Shown piece by piece: positions 4,905-57,657 of a DNA stretch of 64,000 bases. This DNA is from Vicinamibacterales bacterium (GTDB taxonomy: Bacteria; Acidobacteriota; Vicinamibacteria; Vicinamibacterales; UBA2999). The stretch is from positions 28,263 to 92,262 of the forward strand of contig DATDOE010000113.1 in the NCBI GenBank assembly GCA_035293405.1, read 5' to 3'. The position numbers were made by a program, and so were the translations under genes. How positions within the stretch are numbered: the stretch's first letter is position 1; every line of letters starts with the position of its first letter. The notes below the pieces were generated by a model that was not told the origin of the DNA, made no database searches, and saw only the letters and a program-made list of their open reading frames with translations.

Positions 4905-4914
4905 TACCAGAACC

Positions 4915-6084
4915 TCAGACTGTCAATTCTAACTCGCCGGCCATTGCGCGCGCGTAGGCTCGTCCCCACGCATCGATTCGCCGGACCACGTCTATCGTTG
5001 AGACGCCTTCAACGGTGTGCGCGTTCATCGAACGCTCGATCACGGCGGGAATCGATGTAAAGCCCAGTTTGCCGTCGAGAAAAGCGTCAACGGCCACTTC
5101 ATTGGCGGCGTTGAGCACGACGGCCAGCGAGCCTCCGGTCCGCAGCGCGCGGTAGGCCAGGCCAAGACAGGGGAAGCGATCGTGGTCGGGAGGATGGAAT
5201 TCGAGGCGTCCGGCTCTGTTCAGGTCGAGGGAGGGAAGCGAACCGTCCCATCGCTCTGGATAGGAACAGGCGTACTGAATCGGCAGCCGCATGTCGGTGA
5301 CCCCGAGCTGTGCGATCACCGACCCGTCGACGAGCTCCACCATCGAGTGGACGATCGACTGCGGGTGGATGACGACCTCAATCTGATCGGCCGTGACGCC
5401 GAACAGCCAGTGTGCCTCGATGACCTCGAGGCCCTTGTTCATCAGCGTCGCGGAGTCCACCGTGATCTTGCGGCCCATCTGCCAGGTCGGATGCCGGAGC
5501 GCCTGATCGGGACCGACCTGCTCGAGCGCTGCCGCTGTGAATTCTCGAAACGGGCCGCCAGATGCGGTGAGAATCAGCCGCCGGATCTCCGCACTCGTCC
5601 GGCCGTGCAGGCATTGGTGCACGGCATTGTGCTCGCTATCGACCGGGAGGATCGCGACGCCACGCCGGCGCGCGGCGTCGGTCACGAGCGCCCCCGCCAT
5701 CACGAGCACTTCCTTGTTGGCGAGCGCGATCGTCTTTCCGGCTTCAATCGCGGCGAGCACCGCCTCGAGACCGGCCGTACCGGCCGACGCGCAGATCACC
5801 ATGTCCACCGACGGGTGGGTAGCGACGGCGATCAGCCCCTCCGCGCCGCCGGTCATTTCGGCGCGGCTGTCGGCGCCGCACGCGGCGCGAAGGCGATCGA
5901 CGCCCTCGCTCGTGGCCATGGCGACGATCTCCGGCCGATACCGCCGCACCTGCTCCGCCAGCAGCGCCGCATTGTCACCGGCGGCGAGCGCGACGACCTC
6001 GAGCCGCGTCGGATGCGCCTCGACAACGGCCAGCGCACTGCGGCCGATCGATCCGGTCGAGCCGAGGATGGCCAGGCGCTTCAC
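4915..6084 (-). CDS. dxr: 1-deoxy-D-xylulose 5-phosphate reductoisomerase
   Basis: C-terminal 389 aa of ORF 4915..6750. The GTG at 6084..6082 gives 'VKRLAILGSTGSIGRS' and overlaps the cdsA stop as GTGA. The upstream part of the ORF is out-of-frame read-through over cdsA. Confidence 0.93.
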   Translation of the reverse strand: MKRLAILGSTGSIGRSALAVVEAHPTRLEVVALAAGDNAALLAEQVRRYRPEIVAMATSEGVDRLRAACGADSRAEMTGGAEGLIAVATHPSVDMVICASAGTAGLEAVLAAIEAGKTIALANKEVLVMAGALVTDAARRRGVAILPVDSEHNAVHQCLHGRTSAEIRRLILTASGGPFREFTAAALEQVGPDQALRHPTWQMGRKITVDSATLMNKGLEVIEAHWLFGVTADQIEVVIHPQSIVHSMVELVDGSVIAQLGVTDMRLPIQYACSYPERWDGSLPSLDLNRAGRLEFHPPDHDRFPCLGLAYRALRTGGSLAVVLNAANEVAVDAFLDGKLGFTSIPAVIERSMNAHTVEGVSTIDVVRRIDAWGRAYARAMAGELELTV

Positions 6085-6839
6085 GTCAGGTTTCGTACGT
6101 AGAGGTAGAAGGGCGCGGCCGCGAACAGGAGCGCATCGATCCGATCGAGCACGCCGCCGTGTCCGGGGATGAGCGCCGAGCTGTCTTTCACTCCGGCGGT
6201 TCGCTTGAGTCGCGATTCGAACAGATCGCCACAGATGCCCAGCCCGACGACCAGCACGCCGAGCGTGATCAGCGGGCCGAATCCGGCAAAGGGCAACACT
6301 CGCGCGCCAACAACGGTCATGAACGCGGTGCCGAAAATCACACCGCCAACTGCACCCTCGATCGTCTTCTTTGGACTGATTGCCGGAGCGAGCGGATGGC
6401 GGCCGAAGAGTCGCCCGGTGTAGTACTGCATGGAGTCGCTCACGGCGACCGTGCCGATCAGGAGCAGCGTCGCCGGCCAGTGCCACTGGCTGTGCACCGC
6501 GACCAGCATACCCAGCGGCATGCCAATGTAGACAGCGGCAAAGATGCCGGTGGAAGCCTGCTGGATCGTGTGGTTGGAGATCAAGACCTCGACCGCGACC
6601 CACAACAGGCCCATCGCGAACAGCACATAACTCGACGGCATCACGCCGCCGGACGCCATCCAGCAGAGGGCGACGACGAGCACCACGGCGCGGATCGGCG
6701 AGTCCGCGATCTCCAGGTACTCGCGCGCCGCCAGCGCCGCCACGACGCATGCCAGCACGCGCAGCGCCACGACTGGAAGGAAGAGAATGGCCGCCAGCGT
6801 CACGACAGCGAGGGCGACCCCGCTGATCACGCGCGTCAT
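6081..6839 (-). CDS. cdsA: phosphatidate cytidylyltransferase
   Basis: 252-aa polytopic membrane protein with the C-terminal CDS signature 'SRLKRTAGVKDSSALIPGHGGVLDRID'. Sits between uppS and dxr. Confidence 0.9.
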   Translation of the reverse strand: MTRVISGVALAVVTLAAILFLPVVALRVLACVVAALAAREYLEIADSPIRAVVLVVALCWMASGGVMPSSYVLFAMGLLWVAVEVLISNHTIQQASTGIFAAVYIGMPLGMLVAVHSQWHWPATLLLIGTVAVSDSMQYYTGRLFGRHPLAPAISPKKTIEGAVGGVIFGTAFMTVVGARVLPFAGFGPLITLGVLVVGLGICGDLFESRLKRTAGVKDSSALIPGHGGVLDRIDALLFAAAPFYLYVRNLT

Positions 6840-6882
6840 CCCTCGACTCCGCTCGGGATGACCCCGAGTGACAATCGAGGGG

Positions 6883-7671
6883 TCATTGCGCGCCGATGAC
6901 TGCCGGTGCGCCGATGCCGCCGTACCGCCGCTCGCGCTTCTGATAGGCGAGCACCGCTTCGATCAGGTGCCGGCGGCGGAAGTCCGGCCACAGCGTGTCG
7001 GTCACGTAGATCTCGGAGTACGCGATCTGCCAGAGCAGGTAGTTGCTGACCCGCATCTCGCCGCTCGTACGAATGAGCAGATCCGGATCCGGTTGGCCCG
7101 CCGTGTAGAGGAAGCTGGCGAAGCGCTGCTCGTCGAGATCCTCGGGACGGATGCCGGCCTCGATCGCGCGGCGTGCCGCATCCACGATCTCGGCGCGGCC
7201 GCCATAGTTGAGCGCGATGTTGAAGAGCATGCCGCGGCTCGCGCTGGTGCGCTCGATGGCGACGTTCAACTCGTCCTGAATATCAGGCGGCAGTTCCTCG
7301 ATGCGGCCGATCACGCGGAACCGGATGTCATTCCGCAGAAGGGTGTTCAACTCGGACCGCAGATAGCGCTTCAGCAGCCTCATCAGCGTGCCGACCTCGG
7401 TGGCCGGCCGCTTCCAGTTTTCGATGGAGAAGGCGTAAAGCGTCAGCACGCCAATGCCGAGGCGCGCGGCCGTCTCGACCGAGTCGCGCACGGCATCGAT
7501 GCCGGCCCGATGTCCCTCGACCCTGGGCAGGTGGCGCTGTGCCGCCCAGCGGCCGTTGCCGTCCATGATGATCGCGACGTGCGCCGGCAGCCGGTCGAAG
7601 TGAATCTCGCGGGCCAGCGTTTCATCGGCGTGCCCGGGCGGAATCCACGCCAGGAGATCCTCAAGCGGCAC
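6883..7671 (-). CDS. uppS: di-trans,poly-cis-undecaprenyl-diphosphate synthase
   Basis: 'HVAIIMDGNGRWA' and 'LLIRTSGEMRVSNYLLWQIAYSE' motifs of cis-prenyltransferases. Confidence 0.93.
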   Translation of the reverse strand: MPLEDLLAWIPPGHADETLAREIHFDRLPAHVAIIMDGNGRWAAQRHLPRVEGHRAGIDAVRDSVETAARLGIGVLTLYAFSIENWKRPATEVGTLMRLLKRYLRSELNTLLRNDIRFRVIGRIEELPPDIQDELNVAIERTSASRGMLFNIALNYGGRAEIVDAARRAIEAGIRPEDLDEQRFASFLYTAGQPDPDLLIRTSGEMRVSNYLLWQIAYSEIYVTDTLWPDFRRRHLIEAVLAYQKRERRYGGIGAPAVIGAQ

Positions 7672-7697
7672 GACTCAATCCCTCATTCGACAAGCAG

Positions 7698-8435
7698 TTA
7701 ATGATAATCCACACGGACCAGGAACAGGCCCTGCGGAGGCGCCGTCCTGCCCGCCTGCGCGCGCGTCGAACCCTGCAGCAGGGCGGCCATACCGTCTGCC
7801 TGGCGGAAGCCGCGCCCAACCTCGACGAGTGTGCCCACGACCGCCCGGACCATGTGACGCAGGAACCCGTCCCCCGTGATCTCATACGCGAGACGCCCGC
7901 CTCTATCGCGCAGCTCCGACTGGGTCATCGTCCGGACCGTCCCGCTGACGTGGCTGCCCGCGCTTTGAAACGCGGCGAAGTCGTGTGCACCGGTCAGAAC
8001 GGCGGCGGCCTGCCTCATCGCGTCCACATTCAGCCGCTCCGAAATATGCCAGACAAACGCCCGTTCGAACGGGTCGGCAATCACTCCATGCCGCAGCTCG
8101 TACCGGTAGGTCTTGGAGCGCGCGCTGAAGCGCGCATGGAAGTCCGCGGCCACTTCGTCCACAGCGAGGACGCGGATGTCGTCCGGCAACTGCGCGTTGA
8201 GCCCGCGAGCGAGCGTCACGACGTCGTGACCGCAATTCAGCTGGACGCTCGCCACCTGGCCAAGCGCGTGAACCCCCGCATCAGTTCGACCAGCGCCATG
8301 CACCGTCACCGTGCCGCCCTCGAAACGCGCGAGGGCTTCTTCGAGCAGCCCCTGCACGGACTCGCCATCGGCCTGACGCTGCCAGCCGACAAACCGCGTC
8401 CCGTCGTAGGCGAGGGTGATCTTGAGAGTGCGCAT
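7698..8435 (-). CDS. truA: tRNA pseudouridine(38-40) synthase
   Basis: 'LKITLAYDGTRFVGWQRQ' and the catalytic 'HGAGRTDAGVHA'. The ATG at 8435 is preferred over the TTG at 8444. Confidence 0.92.
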   Translation of the reverse strand: MRTLKITLAYDGTRFVGWQRQADGESVQGLLEEALARFEGGTVTVHGAGRTDAGVHALGQVASVQLNCGHDVVTLARGLNAQLPDDIRVLAVDEVAADFHARFSARSKTYRYELRHGVIADPFERAFVWHISERLNVDAMRQAAAVLTGAHDFAAFQSAGSHVSGTVRTMTQSELRDRGGRLAYEITGDGFLRHMVRAVVGTLVEVGRGFRQADGMAALLQGSTRAQAGRTAPPQGLFLVRVDYH

Positions 8436-17644: not shown

Positions 17645-17664
17645 GCTTTGGGTGCACTCATAAC

Positions 17665-17758
17665 AACTCCCAAATGCCCAACTCCCAACTCCCAACTCGG
17701 AATACCCAACTTCGTAGCGCCGATGTTTTGGGAGTTGGCTTTTTGGGAGTTGGTAGTT
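17665..17758. repeat. heptamer-array inverted repeat, GGGAGTT flavour
   Basis: The left arm has about 7 units of aactccc-like sequence (17665-17714). The right arm is 'gggagttggctttttgggagttggtagtt' (17730-17758). Confidence 0.9.
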
Positions 17759-17770: not shown

Positions 17771-19078
17771 TCAGAGCGCGATGTGGGCGTCAGGGTTCAC
17801 GAAGAGCGTGCGACCACCAACGATGGTCGCCGACACACCGCCACGCAGCTCCCAGCCGTCGAACGGCGTGTTCTTCGAACGCGAACGCAGGGAGGCCGCC
17901 TGGATACGCACGCGCAGGTCCGGGGCAATGACCGTGATGTCCGCCGGTGCTCCCTCAGACAGGGTCCCTCCGGGCACACGCAAGATCCGCGCGGGGTTCG
18001 TAGACATCAGCTCCACCAGCCTGGGCAGACGGATCAGGCCCGAGTGGACCAGCCGGTCGAGCGAGAGCGACACGGCTGTCTCCAGCCCGACGATCCCGAA
18101 CGGCGCGCGGTCGAACTCGACCTTCTTCTCGTCGTAGTGGTGCGGCGCGTGATCGGTGGCGATCGCATCGACCGCGCCGTCGGCGATGCCGGCCAGCATG
18201 GCGTCACGGTCGGCCGCCTCGCGCAGGGGAGGATTCATCTTCACGTTGGTGTCGTAGGGAATCGGCGCGCCCAGCGCCTCGTCGGTCAGCGTGAAGTGAT
18301 GCGGCGCCACCTCACAGGTCACCCGCACCCCGCTCTCCTTGCCCTTGCGCACGGCGCGCAGCGACGCGCGCGCGCTCATGTGCGCCACGTGAAAGGCCGA
18401 TCCGGTCAGCTCGGACAGCAGGACGCCGCGTTCCACGCCCAGCGCTTCGGCGGCCCCGGGCATACCGCGCAGCCCGAGCGACGCGGCGTGGAAACCCTCA
18501 TGGGCAACACCATCGGCCTTGAGCGACTGATCCTCGCAATGCTCGATGACGGGAATACCGAACATGCCCGCGTATTCGAGCGCGCGGCGCAGCAGCATCG
18601 CCGTCGCCACCGGATGCCCGTCGTCGGTAATCGCGACGCAGCCGGCATCCTTCAACTCGGCGATATCCGCGAGGAGCTCACCTCTGGATCCCTTCGACAC
18701 CGCACCAATCGGATACACGCGCGCGAGGCCGGCCTCGGCGGCCTTGGCCAGAATCAGCAACGTGACGTTGGCGTTGTCGTTGACCGGAGAGGTGTTGGGC
18801 ATGCACGCCACCGCCGTGAAACCACCGGCCACGGCCGACGCGGTCCCCGTGGCCACGGTTTCCTTGTGCTCCTGGCCAGGCTCGCGCAGGTGCACGTGCA
18901 TGTCGATGAAGCCCGGACAGATCACGAACCCGGCGGGAATCTCGACGACGGTCGCGCCGTTGACCGGCAGGTCACGGCCGACGCGAGCGATCCGATCGCC
19001 CTCGATCAGCACATCGTGGATGCCGTCGATCCCGTTGGCGGGATCGACCACTCGCCCGCCCTTAAGCAGCTTCTTCAT
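17771..19078 (-). CDS. pyrC: dihydroorotase
   Basis: '[13 protein letters not shown]' metal-binding HxH and 'ATDHAPH'. Overlaps the pyrB 3' end. Confidence 0.93.
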
Positions 19079-20042
19079 GTTCGGCTCCGCCCGCGAGGAG
19101 ATAGAGGACCGCCATCCGCACGGCGACGCCGTTGGCCACCTGGTCGAGAATCACCGAGTAAGGACCATCGGCCACTTCTGATGCGATCTCCACGCCGCGG
19201 TTCATCGGACCTGGGTGCATGATCATCACGTCCGGTTTCGCGAGACGCAGCCGCGCCTCGGTCATGCCGAACACACGAAAATACTCACGGAGCGACGGGA
19301 AGTACGCGCCTTCCATGCGCTCGAGCTGAATCCGCAACAGCATCACGACGTCCGCGCCGGCGACCGCCTCATCCACTGAGCTCGTCGGCGTGACGCCGAA
19401 GCGACGGATGTCGGTCGGGAAGAGCGTCGGCGGTCCACACACCCAGACATCGGCGCCCATCTTGGTCAGCAAATGAATGTTCGACCGGAGCACGCGGCTG
19501 TGCAGCAGGTCGCCGACAATGGCCACTTTCAGGCCGGCCAGCTGCTTCTTCCGCTCCCGGATCGTGAACGCGTCGAGCAGCGCCTGCGTCGGATGCTCGT
19601 GCATCCCGTCGCCGGCGTTGATGATGGCTGATCGGCAGATGCGCGAGAGCAGGTGACACGCACCCGAGGATGAGTGGCGCAACACGATCATGTCCGGGGA
19701 CATCGCCTCCAGATTGAGGGCCGTATCGGCCAGCGTCTCGCCCTTGACGACGCTCGAGGTGCCGATGGCGATGTTGAGCGTGTCGGCGCTGAGCCGCTTC
19801 TCGGCAATCTCGAACGAGGTGCGCGTGCGCGTGCTCGGCTCGTAGAACAGGTTGACGACCGTCTTGCCGCGCAAGGCCGGCACTTTCTTGATCGGCCGGG
19901 TCCCGACTTCCTTCATCGCCTCCGCCGTGTCGAGGATCAGGGCAATCTCGCCGGGCGTCAGGTCGGCGATGCCGAGCAGATCCTTGTGGCGCAGGGCCGT
20001 CACAGCCGGCTGCCGATCGATCTCAGTGCTGGCCGTCGTCAT
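19062..20042 (-). CDS. pyrB: aspartate carbamoyltransferase catalytic subunit
   Basis: '[13 protein letters not shown]', 'HPTQALLD', 'HPGPMNRG'. Confidence 0.95.
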
Positions 20043-20581
20043 GCGCTCCCTCCCTGCTCCACGATCACTTCGTCCTGGCCGTCGATCTCCAGCAAACGCA
20101 CCTGCACGCTCTGCTCGGGAGACGTCGGCAGGTTCTTGCCGACGTAGTCGGCCTTGATCGGCAGCTCCCGATGCCCGCGATCCACCAGCACGATGAGCTG
20201 GATGCCCTTCGGGCGGCCGAAGTCGATGAGCGCGTCGAGCGCGGCCCTCGTGGTTCGTCCCGTGTAGAGCACGTCATCCACGAGCAGAATCTTGCGGTTG
20301 TCGATGGAAAACTGAATCTCGGTCCGGCGCACCTGGGGCTGAAGGCCCACGGTGTGGCGCATCAGATCGTCGCGATACAGCGTGATGTCGAGCGCGCCCG
20401 TGGGCACGTCCTGACCGGTGATCTCGCGCAGCGCGCGGGCGAGACGCTTGGCGATCGGAACGCCGCGCGTGCGCACGCCGACCAGCGCGAGGTCGTCGAC
20501 GCCCTTGTTGCGCTCGACGATTTCGTGGGCGATGCGGGCCAGCGTACGGCCGATCCGATCCGCATCCATGACTACGGGCAT
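20039..20581 (-). CDS. pyrR: bifunctional pyrimidine operon regulator / uracil phosphoribosyltransferase
   Basis: 180 aa. '[21 protein letters not shown]'. First gene of pyrR-pyrB-pyrC, with an ATGA-type 4-nt overlap with pyrB. Confidence 0.93.
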
Positions 20582-20633
20582 GCGGACCTCTCGAGGGGGA
20601 TGTTGTGTGGGAAAACGCGTGTGGGCATGTTCA

Positions 20634-20667
20634 CCTCTTCGCGGCCTCGCGGGACCGCAGTTAAAGA
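20634..20667 (-). promoter_or_regulatory. PyrR-binding RNA leader motif
   Basis: The minus strand reads 'UCUUUAACUGCGGUCCCGCGAGGCCGCGAAGAGG'. This resembles the Bacillus-type binding loop (UUUAA ... GUCCAGAGAGGCU ... GAAGG as I remember it), with a GCGG/CCGC stem around 'UCCCGCGAGG'. Confidence 0.55.
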
Positions 20668-20675
20668 GTGAAGCG

Positions 20676-20684
20676 ATTATATCA
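20676..20684 (-). promoter_or_regulatory. extended -10 promoter element (TGATATAAT) for pyrR operon
   Basis: On the minus strand, 20684..20676 reads TGATATAAT, a perfect TGnTATAAT, about 95 nt upstream of the pyrR ATG and just upstream of the PyrR-binding motif. Confidence 0.6.
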
Positions 20685-20737
20685 GTTCAACAGGTTCGAT
20701 GGGTTCAACGGCTTCCAAAGGTTCAATCGGTTCCCAA
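20684..20737. repeat. six tandem imperfect 9-bp repeats (GGTTCAAYN)
   Basis: agttcaaca ggttcgatg ggttcaacg gcttccaaa ggttcaatc ggttcccaa. Followed by the hairpin CCAAGGGT-aggcga-ACCCTTGG (20734..20755). Confidence 0.85.
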
Positions 20738-21282
20738 GGGTAGGCGAACCCTTGGCGACTAACTCGAGAGTAATCCGATGGTGGGAACGTATCGGCCTCG
20801 CCGTCGATCGATTCCTCTGCGGCTCACCATCTTTTCATCAGCACTCACCTCGCGCCAATTACTTGAAAATGGCGCGGTTGCGGCGGTCCGATTAAATCGA
20901 TTTCCGTCGCAGGGACACCCTCAGGGAACAACAGCTGCTGCGGCCGCTGCTTCTGATTTAGAGACGCCTGCACACACAAGTCCGAGGCGCGAGGTCACAC
21001 CTTCTCAGCGAACGCCAACGATACCCTCTCACACCGAGTTCTTCGATCGAGTCGGCGTGATGGGTCGATCTGCGCAAGCGTCAGCTCCTCGCGGAGTTTA
21101 TCGCGCTACCGTTCAAAACTCGTCAGGTCGATGTCCTGCGCGTAGAGGAACAGTGACCTGTTCTGTCACGGAGCTGCGTTATTCTCTGTTCCTGAGTCGA
21201 TACATTGTCTTGGGGTGTCTCCCCAAGCCAATGCAATATCTTGTATCGAGGCGTCCAACCAGATTACCCTCAATCGATTTTC

Positions 21283-23406
21283 ATGGCTGTCTTGACCCAG
21301 GTCCCTTTTCCGTCGGCTTCTGCAAGGCCATTGACTGCGCACCGGCCTGGACGCTCCCTCGCCGGGGCCGTCCAGGCGCGACAGCAGCCGCTTGTTGAAG
21401 CCAGAGGACTGCTGGTGGATGCGTTGCGGGGCAGCCCGGAAAGTTCGGAAGCATTCGCTGCAATCTTCGCGGTCCGCTCGCCGAACCAATTCACCGACAC
21501 AAATCCAGACTCCATTCCCGAACGGGCAGCGTGGGCACTCGTGAATATGTACTTGCTCGGTGCTGATGCTGGAGCACTGATCTCGGATTCACTGCGCTCC
21601 GCCGAGGCGTGGTTCCTCGGATCTCGGGCGCAGTATCTTCCGTCACTAGCAGAGTGCGTCGATGTCCCAACCGATCGCGCTTGTGCGATGTTGCTGTCCG
21701 TCGTGACGATCGACCGCGAGTTCCGGGGACTTCTTCCGTACGTCCTGGAGCCGTTCGACTTCGCGCACCGTATGAGCGCAATGCGGTGCGCGGAATCAGG
21801 AAAGCAGCGTAGACAAAAGCGCTCGTCAGGTACTTTCTACACGCCTGGCGACGTAGCCACGAGCATCGCGCAGCACGCGGTCGGATCGGTCCTGACAGGC
21901 GGACGGGCGATCGATCCCGCGTGCGGAACCGGTGTCTTCTTGTTGGCGCTCTTGCGCGAGTTACGGAAGGGGGGCGATGCTCGCACGCCCTTCCAGATCT
22001 GCGGTAACAGCCTCTACGGGATCGACGTCTCGGACCTTGCCGTCGAGTCATGCGCGTTCGTCCTTGCGCATGAATGCCTTGACGAGATCGAGCACGTCGA
22101 CCCATGGGCAGTGTGGCAGACGATCCGCCTGAATCTGTGGGCGACCGACACGACACGGATTCGGTTATCGATCAATTCGCCCGATGGGACGGAGAGAGAA
22201 TGCGCCAGAAATGCTCTGTCGGCAAACAATTCAACTCCGGCAGGCTTCGTTGGAAAGAACGACACTGGGGCATCGCTCTGGCGAGAATCTGATCCCACGG
22301 ACCTCTGGAGCGTGTTTCCTGAAGCCGCGGGCGGATTCGAGGCGATCGTCGCTAATCCTCCTTACGTTCGAACCACATCTGAACCTGGCAACCTGTATAT
22401 TCGCTTCGTTGAGCAGATGATCAGGCTTGCGCGACCCGCGCGCAGCTTCATCGGAGCCGTTTTGCCGCTCTCTGTCGCGTTTTCTTCTGACGACGAGACG
22501 AGAAACCTCCGGCTGGCATTGACTCACGCTTCAGGCACTTGTCGTTTCGCTTTTTTTGACCGCGAGCCTCACGGCCTATTCGGGGAGGAAGTGAAGACTC
22601 GATCGGCAATTCTGTTCCGTCAGATCGAGCCGGGTGCTGGGCCCGCGGTTGTCCAAACGACTTCATTGCTACGACTCACAAGTCGATCGCGCGCCACGCT
22701 TCTTGAATGCCTGCCGGCTGTCAGCTTGGGACATCAAGACATTCGCGATGGCGTACCCAAACTCGGAAGCGACGTTGAAGTTGATGCATACAACCGGCTG
22801 ATCACCAGGCGGTTCCGGAACAGCGACCTCAGGTTCTCCGCGGCCCCCTTCACGTCTTGCCTTGGTGACCAGGGCGAGGATTGCATTTACGTGGGTCCGG
22901 TTGCTTACAACTTCATCAACGTCGTCAGACGCCTGGAGCTTGTCCCTCGTCCGGAGGGTACACCGACGAGTTCGAATTTCTTGAGATGCGAATTGACGGA
23001 TTCCGTGACCGCGGACGCCATTTTCGGGCTGTTCTCCAGTAGAGTTTCGTACTGGCTGTGGAATGTTCGCGGAGACGGATTCCACGTGTCCAAACGGTTC
23101 GTTGAAAACATCTCGACCTTCTGGGGCGATTTCCCCGCGAGCGCCCGGGCGACCTTGGCCGGAAAAGGCAAGGAACTATGGGCGGCTGTGTCCCGATCGC
23201 CGATCGTCAGCCGAAACGCGGGTGCATGGAGTGTCGCGTTTTCACCTTTGCCATATCAAACTCTCTTAACTGAGATCGACGCTATCGTATCGACGCACCT
23301 TGAGCTGCCGGAAGACTTCTCGGCTTTGCTGCGACGCGCTGCGGTAGAAAGAATCGTTGTGAATCCAGATGAAAAGAAGAGACGCGAACTTGTCGGCCAC
23401 GAGTAA
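21283..23406 (+). CDS. gamma-class N6-adenine DNA methyltransferase (Eco57I/TaqI-like) with long N- and C-terminal regions
   Basis: Motif X 'GTFYTPGDVA', motif I 'IDPACGTGVFLLALL' and motif IV 'IVANPPYVR', in gamma order. The start is uncertain: TTG 21205 or ATG 21283. Confidence 0.85.
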   Translation: MAVLTQVPFPSASARPLTAHRPGRSLAGAVQARQQPLVEARGLLVDALRGSPESSEAFAAIFAVRSPNQFTDTNPDSIPERAAWALVNMYLLGADAGALISDSLRSAEAWFLGSRAQYLPSLAECVDVPTDRACAMLLSVVTIDREFRGLLPYVLEPFDFAHRMSAMRCAESGKQRRQKRSSGTFYTPGDVATSIAQHAVGSVLTGGRAIDPACGTGVFLLALLRELRKGGDARTPFQICGNSLYGIDVSDLAVESCAFVLAHECLDEIEHVDPWAVWQTIRLNLWATDTTRIRLSINSPDGTERECARNALSANNSTPAGFVGKNDTGASLWRESDPTDLWSVFPEAAGGFEAIVANPPYVRTTSEPGNLYIRFVEQMIRLARPARSFIGAVLPLSVAFSSDDETRNLRLALTHASGTCRFAFFDREPHGLFGEEVKTRSAILFRQIEPGAGPAVVQTTSLLRLTSRSRATLLECLPAVSLGHQDIRDGVPKLGSDVEVDAYNRLITRRFRNSDLRFSAAPFTSCLGDQGEDCIYVGPVAYNFINVVRRLELVPRPEGTPTSSNFLRCELTDSVTADAIFGLFSSRVSYWLWNVRGDGFHVSKRFVENISTFWGDFPASARATLAGKGKELWAAVSRSPIVSRNAGAWSVAFSPLPYQTLLTEIDAIVSTHLELPEDFSALLRRAAVERIVVNPDEKKRRELVGHE

Positions 23407-23440
23407 TGCTGTGAAGAAACCCAAGGGGATGAAGGCTGAG

Positions 23441-24340
23441 ATGACGGACCCGATCCCCAAGGCGATCAAAGCGAAGAGCATCGTCTCCAAAGAGGAATGG
23501 CGAGAGTACACAAAGACCGTCTGGCATATCGCGAATGTCTCAGACCCTGATCACCCAGCCGTGTTTCCGGTTGAGATTCCGCACAGACTGATCAAGCTTT
23601 TTAGCTTTTATGGTGAGGTGGTCTTGGACCCGTTTGCGGGCGTGGGTACCACAGCTCGCGCCGCCATTCCCCTCGGCAGGAGAGTGGTGTGCGTTGACCA
23701 GAATCCGCAGTACATCAGCGCAATCAAGACGCGGTGTGCCGCGTTGAGTAACGGAAGGCCAGCCTCGGAGCTTCTGACTGCGGTGAGAGGCGACAGCAGA
23801 TCATTGTCAGCTCTCGCAGACAATTCCGTCGGGTTGGTTGTAACAAGTCCCCCGTATTGGGACAAGGCAGACTACGGCGACAGTCACTCGAACCTCGGCA
23901 GCATCGGGAACTATTCAGATTTCCTGGGCATGACGAAGCGAGTGTTCGCCGAATGCCTGCGAGTGCTGAGTCCTGGCCGGAAACTCTGCATCGTCACCGC
24001 CAACGTGAACCAGCATACGGATCACGGCCTGCTCACTTTCCCTTTGGCCGCGGATTTTCTTCTGCAGGCCCGAGAACTTGGGTTCGTTCTGATCAACGAA
24101 ATCATTTGGTCGAAAGATGGGACAGGTGGGAAATGGGGATCGTGGGGTTCGCAGCGGCCGATTTTTGGAAGCTACCCCTATCCGCCGAACTTCTTGTTCA
24201 AGAACGTGCATGAGTACGTATTGATTTTAGCCAAGCCGCCACAGAAACGAATCTCTGGCAAGAAGGTTCGGTCCTATTCAGACCTAATGACCTCTGTGAT
24301 CCCGCCTGTTGCTGAAAGGCATCGACGGCGAATGCAGTGA
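23441..24340 (+). CDS. N4/N6 DNA methyltransferase (PF01555-like) with permuted motif order
   Basis: 'HPAVFPVEIPHRLIKLFSFYGEVVLDPFAGVGTTARAA' (motifs X and I) lies N-terminal to 'LVVTSPPYW' (motif IV) and 'IIWSK'. The ATG at 23441 has 'GAAGG' 5 nt upstream. Alternative starts are 23429 and 23369. Confidence 0.85.
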   Translation: MTDPIPKAIKAKSIVSKEEWREYTKTVWHIANVSDPDHPAVFPVEIPHRLIKLFSFYGEVVLDPFAGVGTTARAAIPLGRRVVCVDQNPQYISAIKTRCAALSNGRPASELLTAVRGDSRSLSALADNSVGLVVTSPPYWDKADYGDSHSNLGSIGNYSDFLGMTKRVFAECLRVLSPGRKLCIVTANVNQHTDHGLLTFPLAADFLLQARELGFVLINEIIWSKDGTGGKWGSWGSQRPIFGSYPYPPNFLFKNVHEYVLILAKPPQKRISGKKVRSYSDLMTSVIPPVAERHRRRMQ

Positions 24341-25416
24341 GCTTCCACGTCCAGCCTGACCGGGTCAGATTTTTCGAAGTACTGTCCGTTGGCCTCGAAC
24401 AGGGACCGTGGACCGACTTTGCGATCGCAGTGGCGTGGGCTAGGGAAAACGCGGTCGCCTCAATGACTCCTGTGTTGAGTCAATTCCTTCAGGCCGGGGG
24501 CCGGTTCAAGATTACGGTTGGAATCGAATTGCTGGGCACGTCCCGCGAAGCCCTTGAAAGCCTTCTTGCCTTGGAGAGGTATGGCTTTGCAGAAACATTC
24601 ATCTACCATAATGAAGCGCCCGAGGAAACGTTTCACCCCAAGATCTACCTGTTAAGTGGACGCGGTCGAGCGAGACTCATCGTTGGTTCCAGTAACCTCA
24701 CCGGCGGTGGGCTGGCGACCAACGTAGAAGCTGCACTCGAACTGGAGTCACCGGTCGATGGACCAGCCATCGTAGAGGCCGTTCGCTGCCTCGCAGGGCT
24801 GCGAGATTTGCAAGATCCGAGAGTCAAACGTTTGGACGCGGCCTTTCTCGCTGAACTCGTTGCATCTGGGTACGTGATCTCCGAGGCCGAGATCAGGACG
24901 CGCCGGGCAACGCAAACACGCGCACGGGCGGCAAACGCGCGACCGCGGAACAGACTATTCGGCACGGTTCGTCGTGCGCGTCTCCCAGGCGCGAGGCGGC
25001 CGCAAGTGCAAGTCGTCGAGGCTGCCGTCTTGCTACTGCGACCTCGCCGAGCATCAGCGACCGCGCGTAGAACGCAGGTGCAGGTTCCCATTCGACTGAC
25101 TCGCACACCGTTCTTCACGGGTGTCGCGTCGGTCGTCAGCGCACATGACAACCGTAGGCATGGGCTACGGCGGGCGCGGGCTCGCGGCGGCCTCAACACT
25201 GTGAAGCTCGAACTGCCGGAGACTGACGCAATCGAGAATTTCGTCCTGCGTCTCACGAAACGTGGCGATCGAGTGACCTACGAAGCGTTTTCGACAGACT
25301 CGGAACTGGGGCGGCCGATCGCTGACGCGCTCCAGGCCGGACTGGAAACAGATCCACCGACAACAACTGCCACGATTCCGAACCTCGACCGCGCGACCCT
25401 GTATCGATTCGTCTGA
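24337..25416 (+). CDS. PLD-family (HKD) nuclease, putative BfiI/NgoFVII-like restriction endonuclease
   Basis: A single HKD-type motif 'FHPKIYLLSGRGRARLIVGSSNLTGGG' in the N-terminal half, an Arg-rich linker and a separate C-terminal domain. The GTG start overlaps the methyltransferase stop as GTGA. Confidence 0.75.
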   Translation: MSFHVQPDRVRFFEVLSVGLEQGPWTDFAIAVAWARENAVASMTPVLSQFLQAGGRFKITVGIELLGTSREALESLLALERYGFAETFIYHNEAPEETFHPKIYLLSGRGRARLIVGSSNLTGGGLATNVEAALELESPVDGPAIVEAVRCLAGLRDLQDPRVKRLDAAFLAELVASGYVISEAEIRTRRATQTRARAANARPRNRLFGTVRRARLPGARRPQVQVVEAAVLLLRPRRASATARRTQVQVPIRLTRTPFFTGVASVVSAHDNRRHGLRRARARGGLNTVKLELPETDAIENFVLRLTKRGDRVTYEAFSTDSELGRPIADALQAGLETDPPTTTATIPNLDRATLYRFV

Positions 25417-25490
25417 TTTCGAGAGTCCTGCCGACCTGCTGTGGGGCGCTGTCCACAGCCGGAACGGCGGAGTTACAAGCGGTCTTTCGT

Positions 25491-25997
25491 ATGGACTACG
25501 AGTTCCATGTTCAGGATCCGACGTCGCCAGACACGGTATACCTGTTTGAGGCGATCATCGATGCGGCACAACTCGCCACCGAGTTGCGTGGCATCTTCGC
25601 CTTCGCCAGCCAGTCGCGGCTATCGAAAGGGTTCTCGCCGCACAGGTTCCTGCGGCGGGTGGGCGGTGGCACCAGGTACACTTCAAGGTACATGTTCACC
25701 CAGCGCACGCGCGAGATCGGCGTCCGCATGGCGCTCGGTGCGCGGAACGCCGCGTTGAAGCGAATGTTGCTGAGTCAGATACTGCTGGTCACTGTCATCG
25801 GTGTGACTCTGGGTCTCGCCGGAGCGGCGCTGCTGACGCGGCTCATGGAAACGCTGTTGTTCGGCGTTGGCGCACTCGACGCAACGACCTACGTGACCGT
25901 CTCCGCGATCCTCGTCATCACGGCAGCGCTCGCAGCCTATCTGCCGGCCCGGCGCGTGACACGCATCGACTCGATGCAGGCGCTGCGCGCGGAGTAG
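25491..25997 (+). pseudogene. chimeric remnant: unrelated 5' segment fused to the last FtsX/MacB-type permease segment
   Basis: From about aa 75, 'QRTREIGVRMALGARNAALKRML...LFGVGALDATTY...PARRVTRIDSMQALRAE' is the typical C-terminus of a much longer FtsX-domain permease. The N-terminal 70 aa are unrelated. Confidence 0.7.
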
Positions 25998-26130
25998 GGC
26001 CCTCCGTGGGAAGCCCGATCCGTGGTGTTCTGCCGGTCGTACGTCTTCACTCATCACCAACGCGGTCAGCATCGAGTTACGCGCCAGCGCGGGTTGTTAC
26101 GCACTCTTCGAACCTTTCGAACTGTGAAAC

Positions 26131-27882
26131 CTATGGAACCCCATATGAGGGAATAAAGGTGATCGTGCGTTGTTCGTTGAATGCACGTGTGAAGAGATCG
26201 GTGCGTGCGAAGCCGTCGATGTCGCGGGCCACGGGAAGGCCAAGGAAATACAGGAGCGTGGGCGCCACGTCGACGACCGCGCCGCGCGCCTGCCGCGCCG
26301 GCGCCACGGCCGATCCGTAGGCGATGAGGAAACCGTCGGGCGCGCGCTCATGGGTGCCGGTGAACCGCTCATCGCCCACCGCGCGCTCGAGCAGTCGCTT
26401 GCCGAAGGTCAGCGGCTCCATGCCGAAGCCAGACACGACGAGCAGGAGGTCGTCTTCATCAAGCGTCGCCAGCGCGTCGCCGACGAGCGAATCGACGTAC
26501 GCGTAGTAGTCGTCCAGCACGCGCCCGAACTGTCGGCGCTCCTCGTCGGACACATCACCATAGGCATCGGGCATCGCATAGCGAAGGTAGTAGTGGCCAA
26601 CCGCGTCGAGCCCCGCATACCGCACGGCGAGCAGCCGTACGTGCTCGGCCGGGCCGAGCTGCTGGGCGAGCAGATGATGGAGATGGTCGGCCTCGACCGT
26701 CGAACCGCTTTCACCGGTGCGTGGCAGCAGCTCCAGACGAGCGCGACGCTGGCCAGGCGACTGCACCTGCTCCGCGGCCAGTACTGCACGTGCCACCTCG
26801 TCGAGCCTGGGCGGCGACACGGCCGGCAGCGCATCGAGGACGGCCATGCCGTCGGTCCGGCGATGGAACTGGTCGCTGACGATGAATCCTGCCGGCGAAT
26901 CCGCGGGATGCGTGAGCGGCAGGCCGATGAGACCCGTACGGACGCCGTACCGACTGGCGACACGCCACAACGGCATGGACGCGAGACTCGTGGACGAATA
27001 GGGCTCCTCGATCAGGAGGCCGACACGGATCAAGGCCTGTGAGAACAGGTAGTCGGGCAGCACCTCCAACGCGACATCGCCGTTGAAGGGCCGGTACCGC
27101 GCGGCGCCCCGAACGCCGTGCCGTGACGGCCACGTGCCGGTCATGACCGAGGCCCACACCGGCTCAGGCTGCGTCGGCCGCGTCGTGGCCAGGTGCATCG
27201 ATGCGCCGCGATCGAGCAAACGGCCGAAGTTTGGGAGGCGCCCGGCCGCGACCGCCGGGGAGATCACGTCGAGCGAGGCACCATCGAGGCAGAGGAGCAG
27301 CACGCGTGGTCCGTCAACGGGATCGGCGTCAGCCGGCGCCGCTGCCAGGGCTCTCGCCGGCGGGCGCGCAGCCGGCCCCCTCAACCACACGGGCACGACG
27401 ATCGACCCGATTGTCGCCAGGGTGAACAGGATCGCGACCGTCGCCCGGTGCCGCCGGCGCGCGGCCACCTGAGCGAACCCGAGCAGCAGAAAGACCAGCA
27501 TCGCCGCCGCGAACACCGTCGCCGCGTAGGTAATGGCTGGCATCGCGCGCGGATCGAGTGCGGTGCGCAACCCCGAGGCGTGGAGCCAGGTGACGACGGC
27601 CGCTGTGCCGCTCAGCACGGCCGCGCTCCACGTCAGAAGGCGCAGGCTGATCCAGCCAGGTGACGAGGGCTCGACGATCGCGATCTGACGCAGCACATAC
27701 AACGCATACGACACGACGGCGATGTGGAGGCCGTAAGACAGCATCGCCACCGTGAACACCGGACCAGCGGCATGCGTGGTCAACGCCACCGACGGATTCA
27801 GATGCAGCAGCAGAAGCGTGAGGTACACGGCAGCGAGCAGCCCCGCGAACACCGAGTTGCTGAGCATGCGGAGGTATCTCAT
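26131..27882 (-). CDS. membrane-anchored alkaline phosphatase/phosphodiesterase-superfamily protein
   Basis: About 5 N-terminal TM helices, then 'VLLLCLDGASLDV...TTRPTQPEPVWASVMTGTWPSRHGV' (AlkP-core metal/nucleophile region). Confidence 0.8.
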   Translation of the reverse strand: MRYLRMLSNSVFAGLLAAVYLTLLLLHLNPSVALTTHAAGPVFTVAMLSYGLHIAVVSYALYVLRQIAIVEPSSPGWISLRLLTWSAAVLSGTAAVVTWLHASGLRTALDPRAMPAITYAATVFAAAMLVFLLLGFAQVAARRRHRATVAILFTLATIGSIVVPVWLRGPAARPPARALAAAPADADPVDGPRVLLLCLDGASLDVISPAVAAGRLPNFGRLLDRGASMHLATTRPTQPEPVWASVMTGTWPSRHGVRGAARYRPFNGDVALEVLPDYLFSQALIRVGLLIEEPYSSTSLASMPLWRVASRYGVRTGLIGLPLTHPADSPAGFIVSDQFHRRTDGMAVLDALPAVSPPRLDEVARAVLAAEQVQSPGQRRARLELLPRTGESGSTVEADHLHHLLAQQLGPAEHVRLLAVRYAGLDAVGHYYLRYAMPDAYGDVSDEERRQFGRVLDDYYAYVDSLVGDALATLDEDDLLLVVSGFGMEPLTFGKRLLERAVGDERFTGTHERAPDGFLIAYGSAVAPARQARGAVVDVAPTLLYFLGLPVARDIDGFARTDLFTRAFNEQRTITFIPSYGVP

Positions 27883-27885
27883 GCT

Positions 27886-27966
27886 GGTTCTTGGTTCCTG
27901 GTTGGTGGTTCCTGGAAGATGGTTTGCGTATTTCCTCTACGAACCATGAACCACGAACCACGAACC
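27886..27966. repeat. heptamer-array inverted repeat, GGTTCST flavour
   Basis: Left: ggttctt ggttcct ggttggt ggttcct (27886-27913). Right: acgaacc atgaacc acgaacc acgaacc (27939-27966). Fills the divergent intergenic region. Confidence 0.9.
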
Positions 27967-27985
27967 AACAGGTATACTCACAAGA

Positions 27986-28795
27986 ATGCCCGTCGATGTC
28001 GAGGCAAAGGTCATTCGCAACACGCGCCTCTCCGCTGACTACAACGTCATCGCCCTCGCTGCTCCCGAGATTGCCGCCGCGGTTGCTCCTGGCCAATTCG
28101 TGATGGTCAAGCCGGGCCGCGGCAACGATCCGCTGCTGCGCCGCCCGTTCTCCGTGTTCGAGATCCTGCGCACCAACGGCGGCGTCGAGGGCCTGACACT
28201 GCTCAGCAAGCGCGTCGGCGTGACGACCCGCATGCTGCTTGACGCCGTCGAAGGCGACATCGTGTCCTGCCTGGGCCCATTGGGAAGACCGTTCGTGCCG
28301 GTCGATCCGCCAGAGGAGGCGTGGATAGTGGCGGGAGGCGTGGGGCTCGCTCCGTTTGCGACACTCGCCGAGGCGTTGCGCGAGCGCGGCACACCAACCA
28401 CCTTGTTCTATGGTGCACGGTCGGGACGCGAGCTCTTCTACCTCGATTGGTTTTCGTCCCGCGGTGTCCGGCTGGTACTGGCCACCGAGGATGGAAGCTC
28501 AGGTGAACGCGGGCGTATCACCGTGCCGCTCGAGCGCGCCCTGCAGCAGACAAAGGGCAGCGCCATGATCTACGCCTGCGGTCCTGAACCGATGCTCGAA
28601 GCCGTCGCGCACATCTCAGGCAAGTACGGCCGGCGATCGCAGGTCTCGGTCGAGCGCGTGATGGGATGCGGAATGGGCGGGTGCTATAGCTGCGTCATTC
28701 CGATGAAGGACACCGGGGGCGGCCATCACTACGTCCGTTCGTGCATCGCTGGCCCGGTCTTCAGCGGTACAGATCTGGTATGGGAACATGACTAA
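27986..28795 (+). CDS. pyrK: dihydroorotate dehydrogenase (NAD+) electron-transfer subunit
   Basis: FAD/NAD-binding fold ('RPFSV', 'GGVGLAPF') and a C-terminal 2Fe-2S Cys cluster 'CGMGGCYSCV...VRSCIAGPVF'. Confidence 0.92.
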   Translation: MPVDVEAKVIRNTRLSADYNVIALAAPEIAAAVAPGQFVMVKPGRGNDPLLRRPFSVFEILRTNGGVEGLTLLSKRVGVTTRMLLDAVEGDIVSCLGPLGRPFVPVDPPEEAWIVAGGVGLAPFATLAEALRERGTPTTLFYGARSGRELFYLDWFSSRGVRLVLATEDGSSGERGRITVPLERALQQTKGSAMIYACGPEPMLEAVAHISGKYGRRSQVSVERVMGCGMGGCYSCVIPMKDTGGGHHYVRSCIAGPVFSGTDLVWEHD

Positions 28796-28936
28796 ACTCC
28801 CAACTCCCAATCCCGCTTCGCGCGCGAGCCAACTCCCAAGAAAGACGCAAGAAGGACAATTGGGAATCGGGAATTGGGAGTTGGCCCGGGTTCGGGTTGG
28901 GAGTTGGGAGTTAGATGGGGTTGGGAGTTGGGAATT
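28795..28936. repeat. heptamer-array inverted repeat, GGGAGTT/GGGAATT flavour
   Basis: Left: aactccc aactccc aatcccg ... aactccc. The long right arm is gggaatc gggaatt gggagtt ... gggagtt gggagtt ... gggagtt gggaatt (28862-28936). Confidence 0.9.
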
Positions 28937-28939
28937 GAC

Positions 28940-41528: not shown

Positions 41529-42848
41529 ATGCGCGGGCTGTGGTCCACTCTCGGCATGGTCGTCGTGCTGGCCGGCCTGGTCGGCTACATCTACTTCGTC
41601 GATTCGAAAGGCGAACCAGGTACGCCCGAGGCCAAGGAGAAGGTTTTCGGCGGCACTCTCTCGACGACCGACATCGAAGAGGTGCAGATCACGCTGGCGA
41701 GCGGCGAGAACAGCCGTCTCCAGAAGATCGACGGCACCTGGCGACTCGTGGCGCCCTCTCCGGCGCCCGCCGACGAGAGCGAGTTGACGTCGATCACGAG
41801 CGGGCTCGCGTCCCTCGAGATGCAGCGCGTGGTCGCCGAGAACGCGAGCGACATGAAGCAGTACGGTCTCGACCCGCCCCGCGTCGACGTGTCCTTCAGG
41901 AGCAAAGGGCAGAAAGAGCTGCGACGAATCGCACTCGGCACGAAGACGCCGACCAGCGGAGACATGTACGCGCGCATTCCCGATCAGCAACGTGTGTTCC
42001 TGGTCTCGTCCTTCCTCGATACGACCCTCAACAAGACGCCGTTCGCGCTGCGCGACAAGACGATCCTGAAATTCGATCGCGAGAAGGTCGATGGCCTCGA
42101 GCTCGCTGCCGGGTCGACGGTCATTCAGCTGGCCAAGCGCGGGCAGGACTGGACGATCGTCAAACCGTTTGCCGCACGCGCGGAGTATGCGGCCGTCGAA
42201 GGCTCGCTCGAGCGACTCGGCTCCGCGCAGATGGTCGGGATCGTCGAGCCAGAAGCCACCGACCTCGCGAAGTACGGGCTGGACAAGCCTGCCGTGACGA
42301 TGACTGTGGCGACGGGCAGCTCGCGCGCGTCGTTGACGCTCGGCAAGACCGACAATGCGCTGGTATTCGCGAAGGACTCGTCGCGACCGATGGTGTTCAC
42401 CGTCGCGCCGACGCTGCGAGAGGACGTCTTCAAGCTGGGCTCGGAGTTCCGCCGCAAGGATCTGTTCGACGGGCGTTCGTTTACGGCCAATCGCGTCGAG
42501 CTCCGGCGCGGCAGTGAAACGATCGTGCTGGACAAGAGCAAGGGCAAGGACGGGAAAGACGTCTGGCGCAACGGGGCCGGCAAGGATGTCGAGGCCATGA
42601 AGGCCGACGACCTGCTGACGAAGCTGACCGGCCTTCGCGCCTCGTCATTCGAAGACCAGCCGCACGCATCGCTCAAGATGCCCGCGCTCGTCGTCACTCT
42701 GCGGTTCAACGACAACCGGATGGAGACGGTGACCTTCGGCCGTGCGGGAACCGATGCGTTCGCCAGCCGCGCGGACGAAACCGGATCGGCGACGATCGAA
42801 GGACCCGGGCTCGACGAGGCGATGAAGGCACTCGATGCCGTAAAGTAA
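41529..42848 (+). CDS. DUF4340-like protein
   Basis: N-terminal TM 'LWSTLGMVVVLAGLVGYIYF' followed by repeated beta-rich modules. This is the position normally held by DUF4340 after GldG-like genes. Confidence 0.7.
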   Translation: MRGLWSTLGMVVVLAGLVGYIYFVDSKGEPGTPEAKEKVFGGTLSTTDIEEVQITLASGENSRLQKIDGTWRLVAPSPAPADESELTSITSGLASLEMQRVVAENASDMKQYGLDPPRVDVSFRSKGQKELRRIALGTKTPTSGDMYARIPDQQRVFLVSSFLDTTLNKTPFALRDKTILKFDREKVDGLELAAGSTVIQLAKRGQDWTIVKPFAARAEYAAVEGSLERLGSAQMVGIVEPEATDLAKYGLDKPAVTMTVATGSSRASLTLGKTDNALVFAKDSSRPMVFTVAPTLREDVFKLGSEFRRKDLFDGRSFTANRVELRRGSETIVLDKSKGKDGKDVWRNGAGKDVEAMKADDLLTKLTGLRASSFEDQPHASLKMPALVVTLRFNDNRMETVTFGRAGTDAFASRADETGSATIEGPGLDEAMKALDAVK

Positions 42849-42946
42849 TGCAAGATTCAAAATGCAAAATGCAAAACGTCAACGTGCAGGCGTCGCGTCG
42901 CCGCGATGGCATGCCGTGTTTGCATTTTGCATTTTGCATTTCGCAT
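42848..42946. repeat. heptamer-array inverted repeat, ATGCAAA flavour (4+4 units)
   Basis: Left: atgcaag attcaaa atgcaaa atgcaaa (42848-42875). Right: tttgcat x3, then ttcgcat (42919-42946). 43-nt G+C-rich spacer. Confidence 0.9.
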
Positions 42947-47623: not shown

Positions 47624-47626
47624 TTC

Positions 47627-47709
47627 CGGGATTCGGGATCCGGGACTCGGGATCCGGCGGATTCGGTCGTTCACATTTCGAATCCCGAATCCCGAATCCC
47701 GAGTCCCGG
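47627..47709. repeat. heptamer-array inverted repeat, CGGGATT flavour
   Basis: Left: cgggatt cgggatc cgggact cgggatc cggcggatt cgg. Right: cgaatcc x3, then cgagtcc (47679-47706). Loop of about 12 nt. Confidence 0.9.
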
Positions 47710-51426: not shown

Positions 51427-51644
51427 CGGTCACTCCGGATCCCGGTGCACCGTCTCCATCGAAAACGCCGGTAGACACACCGCGATGTATTCTGCGCCGC
51501 CCAGAGGCGTGCTGTAGCGCACCCATTCTCCAGCCGCGGTCAACTACTGCCTGACCGGCGACCTGCGTATTCCTCGATGCGCTTCGGAGGCGTACCCGCA
51601 GCCTGAACAATGGTCGGAGTTTGAATAAGTCGGGGCATTCTTCT

Positions 51645-51722
51645 GGTTCCTGGTTCGTGGTTCGTGGTTGAAAAGTCGGGAGTTGGGAGTTGGGAGTTGG
51701 CTCGGAGATCGAGTTGGGAGTT
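51645..51722. repeat. two adjacent heptamer arrays of different flavour (GGTTCGT then GGGAGTT)
   Basis: ggttcct ggttcgt ggttcgt ggttgaa, then gggagtt x3, ggctcggagatcga, gttgggagtt. Confidence 0.9.
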
Positions 51723-57646: not shown

Positions 57647-57657
57647 GAACCTCTGAA

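Follow-up and report, generated by a model that had tools for sequence, protein, structure and literature searches.

A horizontally acquired cassette in a Vicinamibacterales chromosome, probably a BfiI-kind Type II restriction-modification system

The DNA analysed here is a 64-kb stretch of a Vicinamibacterales chromosome, referred to as the window, and coordinates are window positions unless another contig is named. Between pyrR and a gene for a protein of 583 amino acids (aa), it holds three plus-strand genes encoding two DNA methyltransferases (M1 and M2) and a nuclease of the phospholipase D (PLD) family (R). The block from 20.7 to 26.1 kb that carries them is a horizontally acquired genomic island. 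We give a probability of roughly 0.75 to the reading that this cassette, gained by horizontal transfer, is a self-contained Type II restriction-modification system of the BfiI kind. An earlier note, made from the same DNA without database searches, had proposed a low-G+C island with two methyltransferases and a BfiI/NgoFVII-like nuclease.

The nuclease, the methyltransferases, and their linkage

The three genes are tightly linked, as the earlier note had described. Their open reading frames (ORFs) span 21205-23406, 23369-24340, and 24337-25416, with the starts of the first two placed at 21283 and 23429. The M2 stop codon and the R start codon overlap in the sequence GTGA, and this 4-nt overlap is also present in three homologous cassettes. 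Contigs were looked up for R itself and for six homologues, and the M1-M2-R trio was found in 8/8 contexts with unrelated flanks, which carry GmrSD, a PLD-helicase-DUF3427 protein, toxin-antitoxin genes, a Rep gene, or metabolic genes. The nuclease gene is convergent with the methylase genes in one locus, and an identical copy of the cassette was assembled from an independent sample. In Salipiger profundus, a cultured alphaproteobacterium, the conjugative MOBQ plasmid pTPRO3 encodes M1 and M2 as one fused protein of 832 aa, whose M1 and M2 parts are 32% and 72% identical to the window proteins, respectively. A full-length R homologue (38%) directly follows the fusion. The recurrence of the trio and the M1-M2 fusion beside R bear out the idea that two methyltransferases and a PLD nuclease form one module. 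Two methylases per asymmetric site are the norm in Type IIA/IIS systems (PMC4081073), and the cassette agrees with this in gene content and linkage, both linked methylases having intact motifs.

Two of the metagenomic contexts have conspicuous neighbours. The L001 cassette (4532-8080) lies beside a SauUSI-like HIT-PLD-ResIII-helicase-DUF3427 protein of 1182 aa, and the cassette on the P0006 contig (genes 6830-10033) lies beside an Mrr_N-GmrSD protein of 1067 aa. With these defence genes as neighbours, the cassette in both genomes is therefore located within defence islands.

R contains one HKD motif per chain (FHPKIYLL...GSSNLT), of the HxK(x)4D(x)6GSxN type. A database search yielded 13 full-length relatives of R, all metagenomic, and an alignment of 11 family members showed that H100, K102, S118, N120, and E131 are invariant. 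The active site of BfiI consists of H105, K107, N125, and E136 (PMC4267654), and the spacing of the corresponding residues in R (+2/+20/+31) is identical. BfiI (2c1l) was also the best match when the PDB was searched with R as a single sequence (E = 0.038). The family profile retrieved SauUSI (7e-7), BfiI (4e-5), and R.NgoAVII (0.47), in each case over the N-terminal domain. An AlphaFold model of R, with a predicted local distance difference test score (pLDDT) of 78, was searched with Foldseek; BfiI ranked first (E = 1e-11) and aligned over the full length (396 columns), followed by SauUSI (6e-8, 165 columns) and R.NgoAVII (4e-7, 382 columns). Phospholipase D, NucT, polyphosphate kinase, and Tdp1 ranked lower and aligned over only 127-190 columns. 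These results support the grouping of R with restriction-type PLD nucleases rather than with lipid enzymes or Nuc. The earlier note had named phospholipid and cardiolipin synthases and Nuc as the groupings that would speak against its proposal; instead, BfiI outranks the phospholipases, NucT, and Tdp1. Its description of R as a BfiI-like HKD nuclease with a separate C-terminal domain likewise agrees with the invariant HKD residues and with a C-terminal domain that folds alone in the model.

M1 carries the motifs FYTP (motif X, GTFYTPGDVA), DPACGTG (motif I, IDPACGTGVF), and NPPY (motif IV, ANPPYV), and matches Pfam Eco57I (2.6e-8) and N6_Mtase (7.3e-7), in line with the gamma-class N6-adenine assignment made earlier. 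Its N-terminal methylase core matches NCBIfam TIGR02987 (Alw26I/Eco31I/Esp3I) with 32 bits against a cutoff of 353, and PADLOC matches M1 to MTase_II. Apart from the core, M1 has an N-terminal extension of ~175 aa and a C-terminal region of ~300 aa, the latter presumed to be the target-recognition part. The second methyltransferase shows the predicted SPPY motif (TSPPYW) and matches Pfam N6_N4_Mtase at 7.8e-38. Because its motif I (DPFAGVGTT) precedes motif IV and the Pfam and 2zie matches fall in two swapped stretches, M2 is circularly permuted relative to the beta-class Pfam model and PDB 2zie. This Thermus methylase is also its best PDB relative (2e-44), the PADLOC match is MTase_II (8e-57), and the PDB neighbours include both m4C and m6A enzymes.

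Known systems and the proposed mode of action

BfiI/BmrI (Bacillus; Type IIS; PDB 2C1L) resembles R in size (~360 aa) and in architecture, in which a linker joins the single-HKD PLD domain at the N-terminus to a C-terminal domain. Its system likewise has two methyltransferase genes and no ATPase partner. The two differ in several respects. The BfiI linker is acidic, whereas that of R is basic; no Pfam model covers the C-terminal domain of R, which cannot be called a B3-like pseudobarrel with any confidence; and the host is an acidobacterium, whose methylases are a gamma-class N6-adenine enzyme and a permuted N6_N4 enzyme. Both BfiI methylases are reportedly N4-cytosine enzymes. FokI, Alw26I/Eco31I/Esp3I, and BpuSI direct two methylase activities, separate or fused, to one asymmetric site (PMC4081073). 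Their nucleases are of a different type, PD-(D/E)xK or related, which depends on Mg2+.

By analogy with BfiI, we infer that R dimerises, needs no metal ion, and cleaves at a position shifted from an asymmetric site, each strand of which is modified by one of the two methylases. M1 and M2 would act together, possibly as a complex, and each would methylate one strand of the asymmetric site, thereby protecting host DNA. R would read the same site in its unmethylated form through the C-terminal beta-rich domain. A single HKD motif per chain implies a dimer for a complete PLD active site, as in Nuc and BfiI. Two R chains would dimerise via their N-terminal PLD domains into one shared HxK active site, which may cut both strands near the site, metal-free, through a covalent phospho-histidine intermediate as in BfiI.

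R.NgoAVII and R.CglI (ATP-dependent, R plus N protein; PDB 4RCT) offer a different model. In that model R would be inactive alone and would cut with a DEAD-family ATPase (N/H protein) encoded elsewhere, at the expense of NTP hydrolysis. R.NgoAVII matches R structurally over its full length, and the layout of a PLD domain followed by a C-terminal DNA-binding domain is common to R, R.NgoAVII, and R.CglI (PMC4267654). The structures leave unexplained why BfiI stands alone and R.NgoAVII does not (PMC4267654), and in the L001 locus a PLD-ResIII-helicase-DUF3427 gene is situated 1 kb from the cassette. However, this gene runs in the opposite direction, and its product has a PLD domain of its own and seems to be an independent enzyme of the SauUSI type. 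No helicase or ATPase gene is conserved beside R in the window, the 7 other metagenomic contexts, or pTPRO3, and none of these 9 contexts contains a DEAD-family N/H gene. NgoAVII and CglI need the N/H protein, and their systems have one methylase, not two as here (PMC4267653). BfiI outscores NgoAVII for R by both sequence and structure. The lack of a conserved helicase partner makes stand-alone action, as in BfiI, the most likely mode for R, and an NgoAVII/CglI-type R protein is very unlikely. The label BfiI/NgoFVII-like in the earlier note thus covers two different modes, of which the absence of a helicase partner favours the stand-alone BfiI mode. R of the window has no match to the NgoFVII family (PF09565), and the Salipiger member reaches 22.8 bits against the RE_NgoFVII cutoff of 23.8.

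Alternatively, R could serve as effector in a different methylation-linked defence system, one resembling DISARM, MADS, or a Zorya accessory, or it could be a modification-dependent (Type IV) nuclease; in either case the methylases would have some other function. In PADLOC, R matches ZacB (2.7e-9) and DrmC (4.9e-6), M1 weakly matches mad2, DrmMI, and PglX, and M2 matches mad2. In the profile search of the PDB, the PLD domain of R matched the Type IV enzyme SauUSI best, and a near PLD relative of R carries a methyl-reading DpnI_C domain. However, the PADLOC matches are confined to generic PLD or methylase cores, and no context contains DrmA/DrmB helicase-DUF1998, PglZ/BrxC, other Mad, or Zor partners; DISARM, BREX, MADS, and Zorya were rejected for lack of these partner genes. 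SauUSI (PLD-helicase-SRA; PDB 7CLG) is a single chain of ~950 aa that includes helicase and modification-reading domains and lacks a cognate methylase, and only its PLD core of ~165 residues aligns with R. A Type IV nuclease in an operon with two methylases would attack its own host, whereas three-gene linkage, M2-R translational coupling, and the M1-M2 fusion beside R fit a methylase-protected nuclease. We therefore consider such an effector role improbable.

To our knowledge, PLD-type enzymes are the only metal-independent restriction endonucleases, and few have been characterised (BfiI/BmrI; NgoFVII and AspCNI in part). REBASE is reported to hold at least 40 putative PLD-type restriction enzymes (PMC4081073). 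The type is already known; what is new here is a divergent member with an undescribed and rare presumed recognition domain. Enzyme engineering would gain a new specificity and a new cleavage module from a divergent stand-alone PLD family that recognises DNA through a different domain; the BmrI PLD domain has already served in chimeric nucleases (PMC2094064). The cultured, plasmid-borne representative on pTPRO3 of Salipiger profundus makes the R family directly testable. The cassette fills a known category and leaves current understanding in place; it is a fairly ordinary defence cassette, but a credible one.

The C-terminal domain of R

When modelled alone, the C-terminal domain gave a pLDDT of 91.5 and a predicted template modelling score of 0.85. 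It is rare, and an exhaustive profile search of 1.84 billion proteins found 160 clusters at 50% identity. Most carriers, with ~100 clusters of the R type, resemble R in having a length of 350-400 aa and the domain in C-terminal position, and others carry it N-terminally. The domain is portable: it is fused to a TnsA-like endonuclease (Pfam 23.5 bits) in a phage contig, where hhalign relates it to the R domain with 99.2% probability (E = 7e-20), and to T5orf172/MUG113 domains in proteins of 267-307 aa. T5orf172 and MUG113 are members of the GIY-YIG clan. Outside the R family, the nearest PLD relatives carry other DNA-binding domains (DpnI_C, helix-turn-helix). Because the domain is exchanged among unrelated nuclease domains, it is most simply explained as a target-recognition module. 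The same principle of design has been established for BfiI (PMC4081073). R has no domain in common with either methylase (hhalign probability of a common recognition module 0.1% for each), and therefore nuclease and methylases must read the site independently. A 1609-aa protein with five apparent copies of the domain proved to be a plectin-repeat protein, and the matches were discarded as spurious.

In the phage contig mentioned above (L089, 4569-6960; IMG/VR contig IMGVR_UViG_3300020172_002285), the domain and the TnsA-like part form a protein of 319 aa. The DNA polymerase III alpha gene stops after the PHP domain and the start of the NTPase domain, and the 319-aa gene directly follows. This arrangement looks like a homing-endonuclease-type insertion that splits the polymerase gene.

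The fold of the domain was compared with the PDB. The best match was the plant B3 domain VRN1 (E = 0.31, probability 0.57, TM-score 0.39-0.43), and BfiI-C was not among the top 50 fold matches of the isolated domain. The full-length Foldseek alignments to BfiI and R.NgoAVII run through both domains, and the order of secondary structure elements (beta-beta-alpha-beta-beta-beta-alpha-beta-beta) is compatible with a helix-capped 7-stranded barrel. B3-like domains lack mutual sequence similarity (PMC3973309). The model thus weakly suggests a B3-like domain, perhaps a very divergent bacterial and phage branch of the B3-like pseudobarrel. Weak but recurrent similarities between the domain profile and the coat proteins of leviviruses (MS2/fr; E 0.005-0.2) were ascribed to chance, as Foldseek gave no support.

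Several observations weigh against the BfiI-kind reading. The identity between R and BfiI is only 14%, and R scores 25.4 bits for Pfam PLDc_2, slightly short of the cutoff of 27. Taken by itself, the C-terminal domain lacks a significant fold match in the PDB, no sequence link to BfiI-C, EcoRII-N, or B3 was found with a 41-sequence profile against the PDB, and no Pfam model matches the domain even at E <= 10; its DNA binding is inferred from context. The linkers of BfiI and NgoAVII are rich in Asp and Glu and are proposed to auto-inhibit the nuclease as a DNA mimic (PMC4267654). The linker of R is basic (13 K/R, 2 D/E), as in 11/11 family members, so DNA-mimic auto-inhibition may not apply to R. 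The operon has no framing promoter-like or terminator-like signal in a scan with the sigma-70 consensus, the host being an acidobacterium. Finally, identity across cassettes is 62-84% for M2, 31-59% for M1, and 35-72% for R, and M2 is conserved in cassettes from Acidobacteriota to Alphaproteobacteria. Such a conserved M2 is a poor fit with three proteins co-evolving on one site. Either one specificity is common to all cassettes, or M2 is targeted via M1; M2 is near-invariant and has no obvious variable recognition region.

These points can be combined in a tentative reading, which we consider rather unlikely, in which R ends in a portable recognition domain of a new fold and M1 and M2 together make up a heteromeric methylase. 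M2 may then supply catalysis and rely on M1 to reach the target, instead of the pair being two independent strand-specific methylases. The portable domain may serve at least three unrelated nuclease chemistries, namely PLD, TnsA-like PD-(D/E)xK, and GIY-YIG-like T5orf172/MUG113.

Insertion between pyrR and its neighbour

The 80 closest reference genomes, which are without exception Vicinamibacterales/Acidobacteriota metagenome-assembled genomes with PyrR identities of 76-94%, served for a comparison of the pyrR locus. Ten window proteins were searched against these loci by tblastn within 10 kb of pyrR, and M1, M2, or R was found in 0/80. The gene order in the relatives is pyrD-pyrK-(583-aa gene)-pyrR-pyrB-pyrC, with pyrR adjoined by the 583-aa gene or by pyrK. 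The G+C content is 0.580 in 20750-25420 and 0.586 in the whole block (20708-26130), compared with 0.655 in the remaining window, and 0/493 equally long windows outside the insert fall below 0.635. The G+C content at third codon positions (GC3) is 0.65, 0.66, and 0.62 for M1, M2, and R, and 0.77-0.86 for pyrC, pyrB, pyrR, the 583-aa gene, pyrK, and pyrD. The region is a genomic island because its genes are missing from the pyrR locus of the relatives and because its G+C and GC3 values deviate. The island claimed in the earlier note is thereby upheld, down to its hand counts of 32/60 G+C in 23401-23460 and 38/60 in 19801-19860; the same genes in all relatives at native G+C, which it had named as evidence to the contrary, were not what the 80 loci contained.

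DNA junctions were compared by blastn with the closest relative, L008. Window 19002-20707 corresponds to L008 11577-9876, and window 26144-28498 to L008 9858-7548. The two homology breakpoints (20707 and 26144) are separated by 18 bp in L008, and therefore the inserted block is 5.4 kb long and extends from ~20708 or ~20750 to ~26130 (Table 1). The synteny comparison suggested in the earlier note thus sets both ends of the island, and it moves the right border, which had been placed at 25720. The permease remnant, taken before as the native right border, lies inside the insert. The left end of ~520 bp had been described as devoid of a convincing ORF; indeed, no ORF there has a family match. This leader (20750-21282) also shows no similarity to the upstream regions of other cassettes. 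No integrase or recombinase ORF, no tRNA, and no convincing flanking direct repeat was found at the insert, which agrees with the earlier observation on the first and last of these, but an imperfect inverted repeat that brackets the insert had been missed. In this uncultured lineage of soil acidobacteria, a defence cassette has been inserted cleanly and recently next to pyrR, separating it from the adjoining gene, and no mobility gene can be recognised.

Alternatively, the cassette could be a decaying remnant, the scar of an old insertion with orphan methylases and a silent nuclease. The permease ORF in the insert is chimeric and truncated, ~530 bp of the insert are non-coding, and mobility genes are lacking. 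The promoter and terminator scan found no promoter-like site at the cassette and terminator-like sites no commoner than in shuffled sequence. However, all three ORFs are full-length compared with their homologues, every catalytic motif is intact, and the identical copy from an independent sample (L003) speaks against decay. The promoter scan was limited to the sigma-70 consensus, and the organism is an acidobacterium. We regard decay as having little probability and retain the reading of a self-contained BfiI-kind cassette.

Table 1. Features of the inserted block and its flanks (window positions).
Feature	Position	Strand	Remarks
Inserted block	20708..26130		Left edge ~20708 or ~20750 owing to a GGTTC repeat array; ~5.4 kb
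M1, gamma-class N6-adenine DNA methyltransferase, 707 aa	21283..23406	+	ATG at 21283 set by homology to L006
M2, N6_N4-family DNA methyltransferase, ~303 aa	23429..24340	+	Alternative starts 23411, 23441
R, whole nuclease, 359 aa	24337-25416	+	Two-domain
R N-terminal single-HKD PLD nuclease domain, residues 1-185	24337..24891	+	H100, K102, N120, E131
R inter-domain linker, residues ~185-228	24889..25020	+	pLDDT <50 at 194-201 and 214-228
R C-terminal beta-rich domain, residues 226-359	25012..25416	+	Presumed sequence-recognition (DNA-binding) module
Non-coding leader of cassette	20750..21282	+	No family-supported ORF, no sigma-70 consensus match
Chimeric ORF	25491..25997	+	66 aa (25491-25688) in frame with the last ~102 aa of an ADOP/FtsX-type permease (25689-25997)
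Left-junction array, ~six 9-bp GGTTCNNNN units	20684..20739	+	Holds left inverted-repeat arm 20683-20704
Right-junction array, ~four GGTTCNNNN units	26103..26140	-	Inverted relative to left array; holds right arm 26103-26124
pyrR, native left flank	20039..20581	-	Conserved leader/promoter region extends to ~20690
583-aa gene, native right flank	26131..27882	-	Directly adjoins pyrR in closest relatives

Both junctions carry arrays of GGTTCNNNN units, and the right one overlaps the stop codon of the 583-aa gene. Within the window, 7/11 matches to the motif sit at the two junctions, with 3.8 matches expected by chance. The arms of the bracketing inverted repeat are 22 nt long and 82% complementary. 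The empty site in L008 (9850-9900) has 3-4 GGTTCNNNN units in a single orientation only. The arrays may mark the ends of an element or may belong to the target site.

The right part of the insert contains the chimeric ORF. Its permease part matches Pfam FtsX (4.4e-14) and positions 702-803 of the 803 positions of the NCBIfam ADOP model, and has a host-like GC3 of 0.83. No copy of this fragment is present elsewhere in the window or beside pyrR in close relatives, and its origin as a copy of another window gene was rejected because no paralogue was found. The 66-codon N-terminal part has no Pfam match and no homologue in any fetched locus. A resemblance of its 'FHVQDP...FAFAS' to 'FHVQPD...AVAWA' of R had raised the idea of a truncated second R-like PLD gene, which was dismissed (hhalign probability 0.3%, no Pfam match, no homologue). 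The insert is composite, consisting of the low-G+C cassette and ~0.7 kb of acidobacterial-type DNA, the latter perhaps carried over from an earlier acidobacterial location.

In the leader of pyrR (20630-20690, minus strand), CACCTCTTCGCGGCCTCGCGGGACCGCAGTTAAAGAG is conserved across five relatives and is followed by a TATAAT-like box on the pyrR strand. A hairpin can fold from the leader, and its loop, GGUCCCGCGAGGCC, is similar to a PyrR-binding box. A search of 19800-26600 against Rfam returned no PyrR element or other RNA at E <= 0.1.

The intergenic regions of this genome contain recurrent pairs of heptamer tandem arrays of ~4 copies, 25-80 bp apart. The paired arrays are often mutual reverse complements, such as AATGCAA x4 with TTTGCAT x4 and CTGGTTC x4.6 with ACGAACC x4.1. 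They are located at 1150-1242, 17664-17711, 27884-27967, 28795-28937, 42847-42947, 47625-47708, 51643-51700, 57656-57784, and 61527-61634, and look like a family of structured intergenic repeats.

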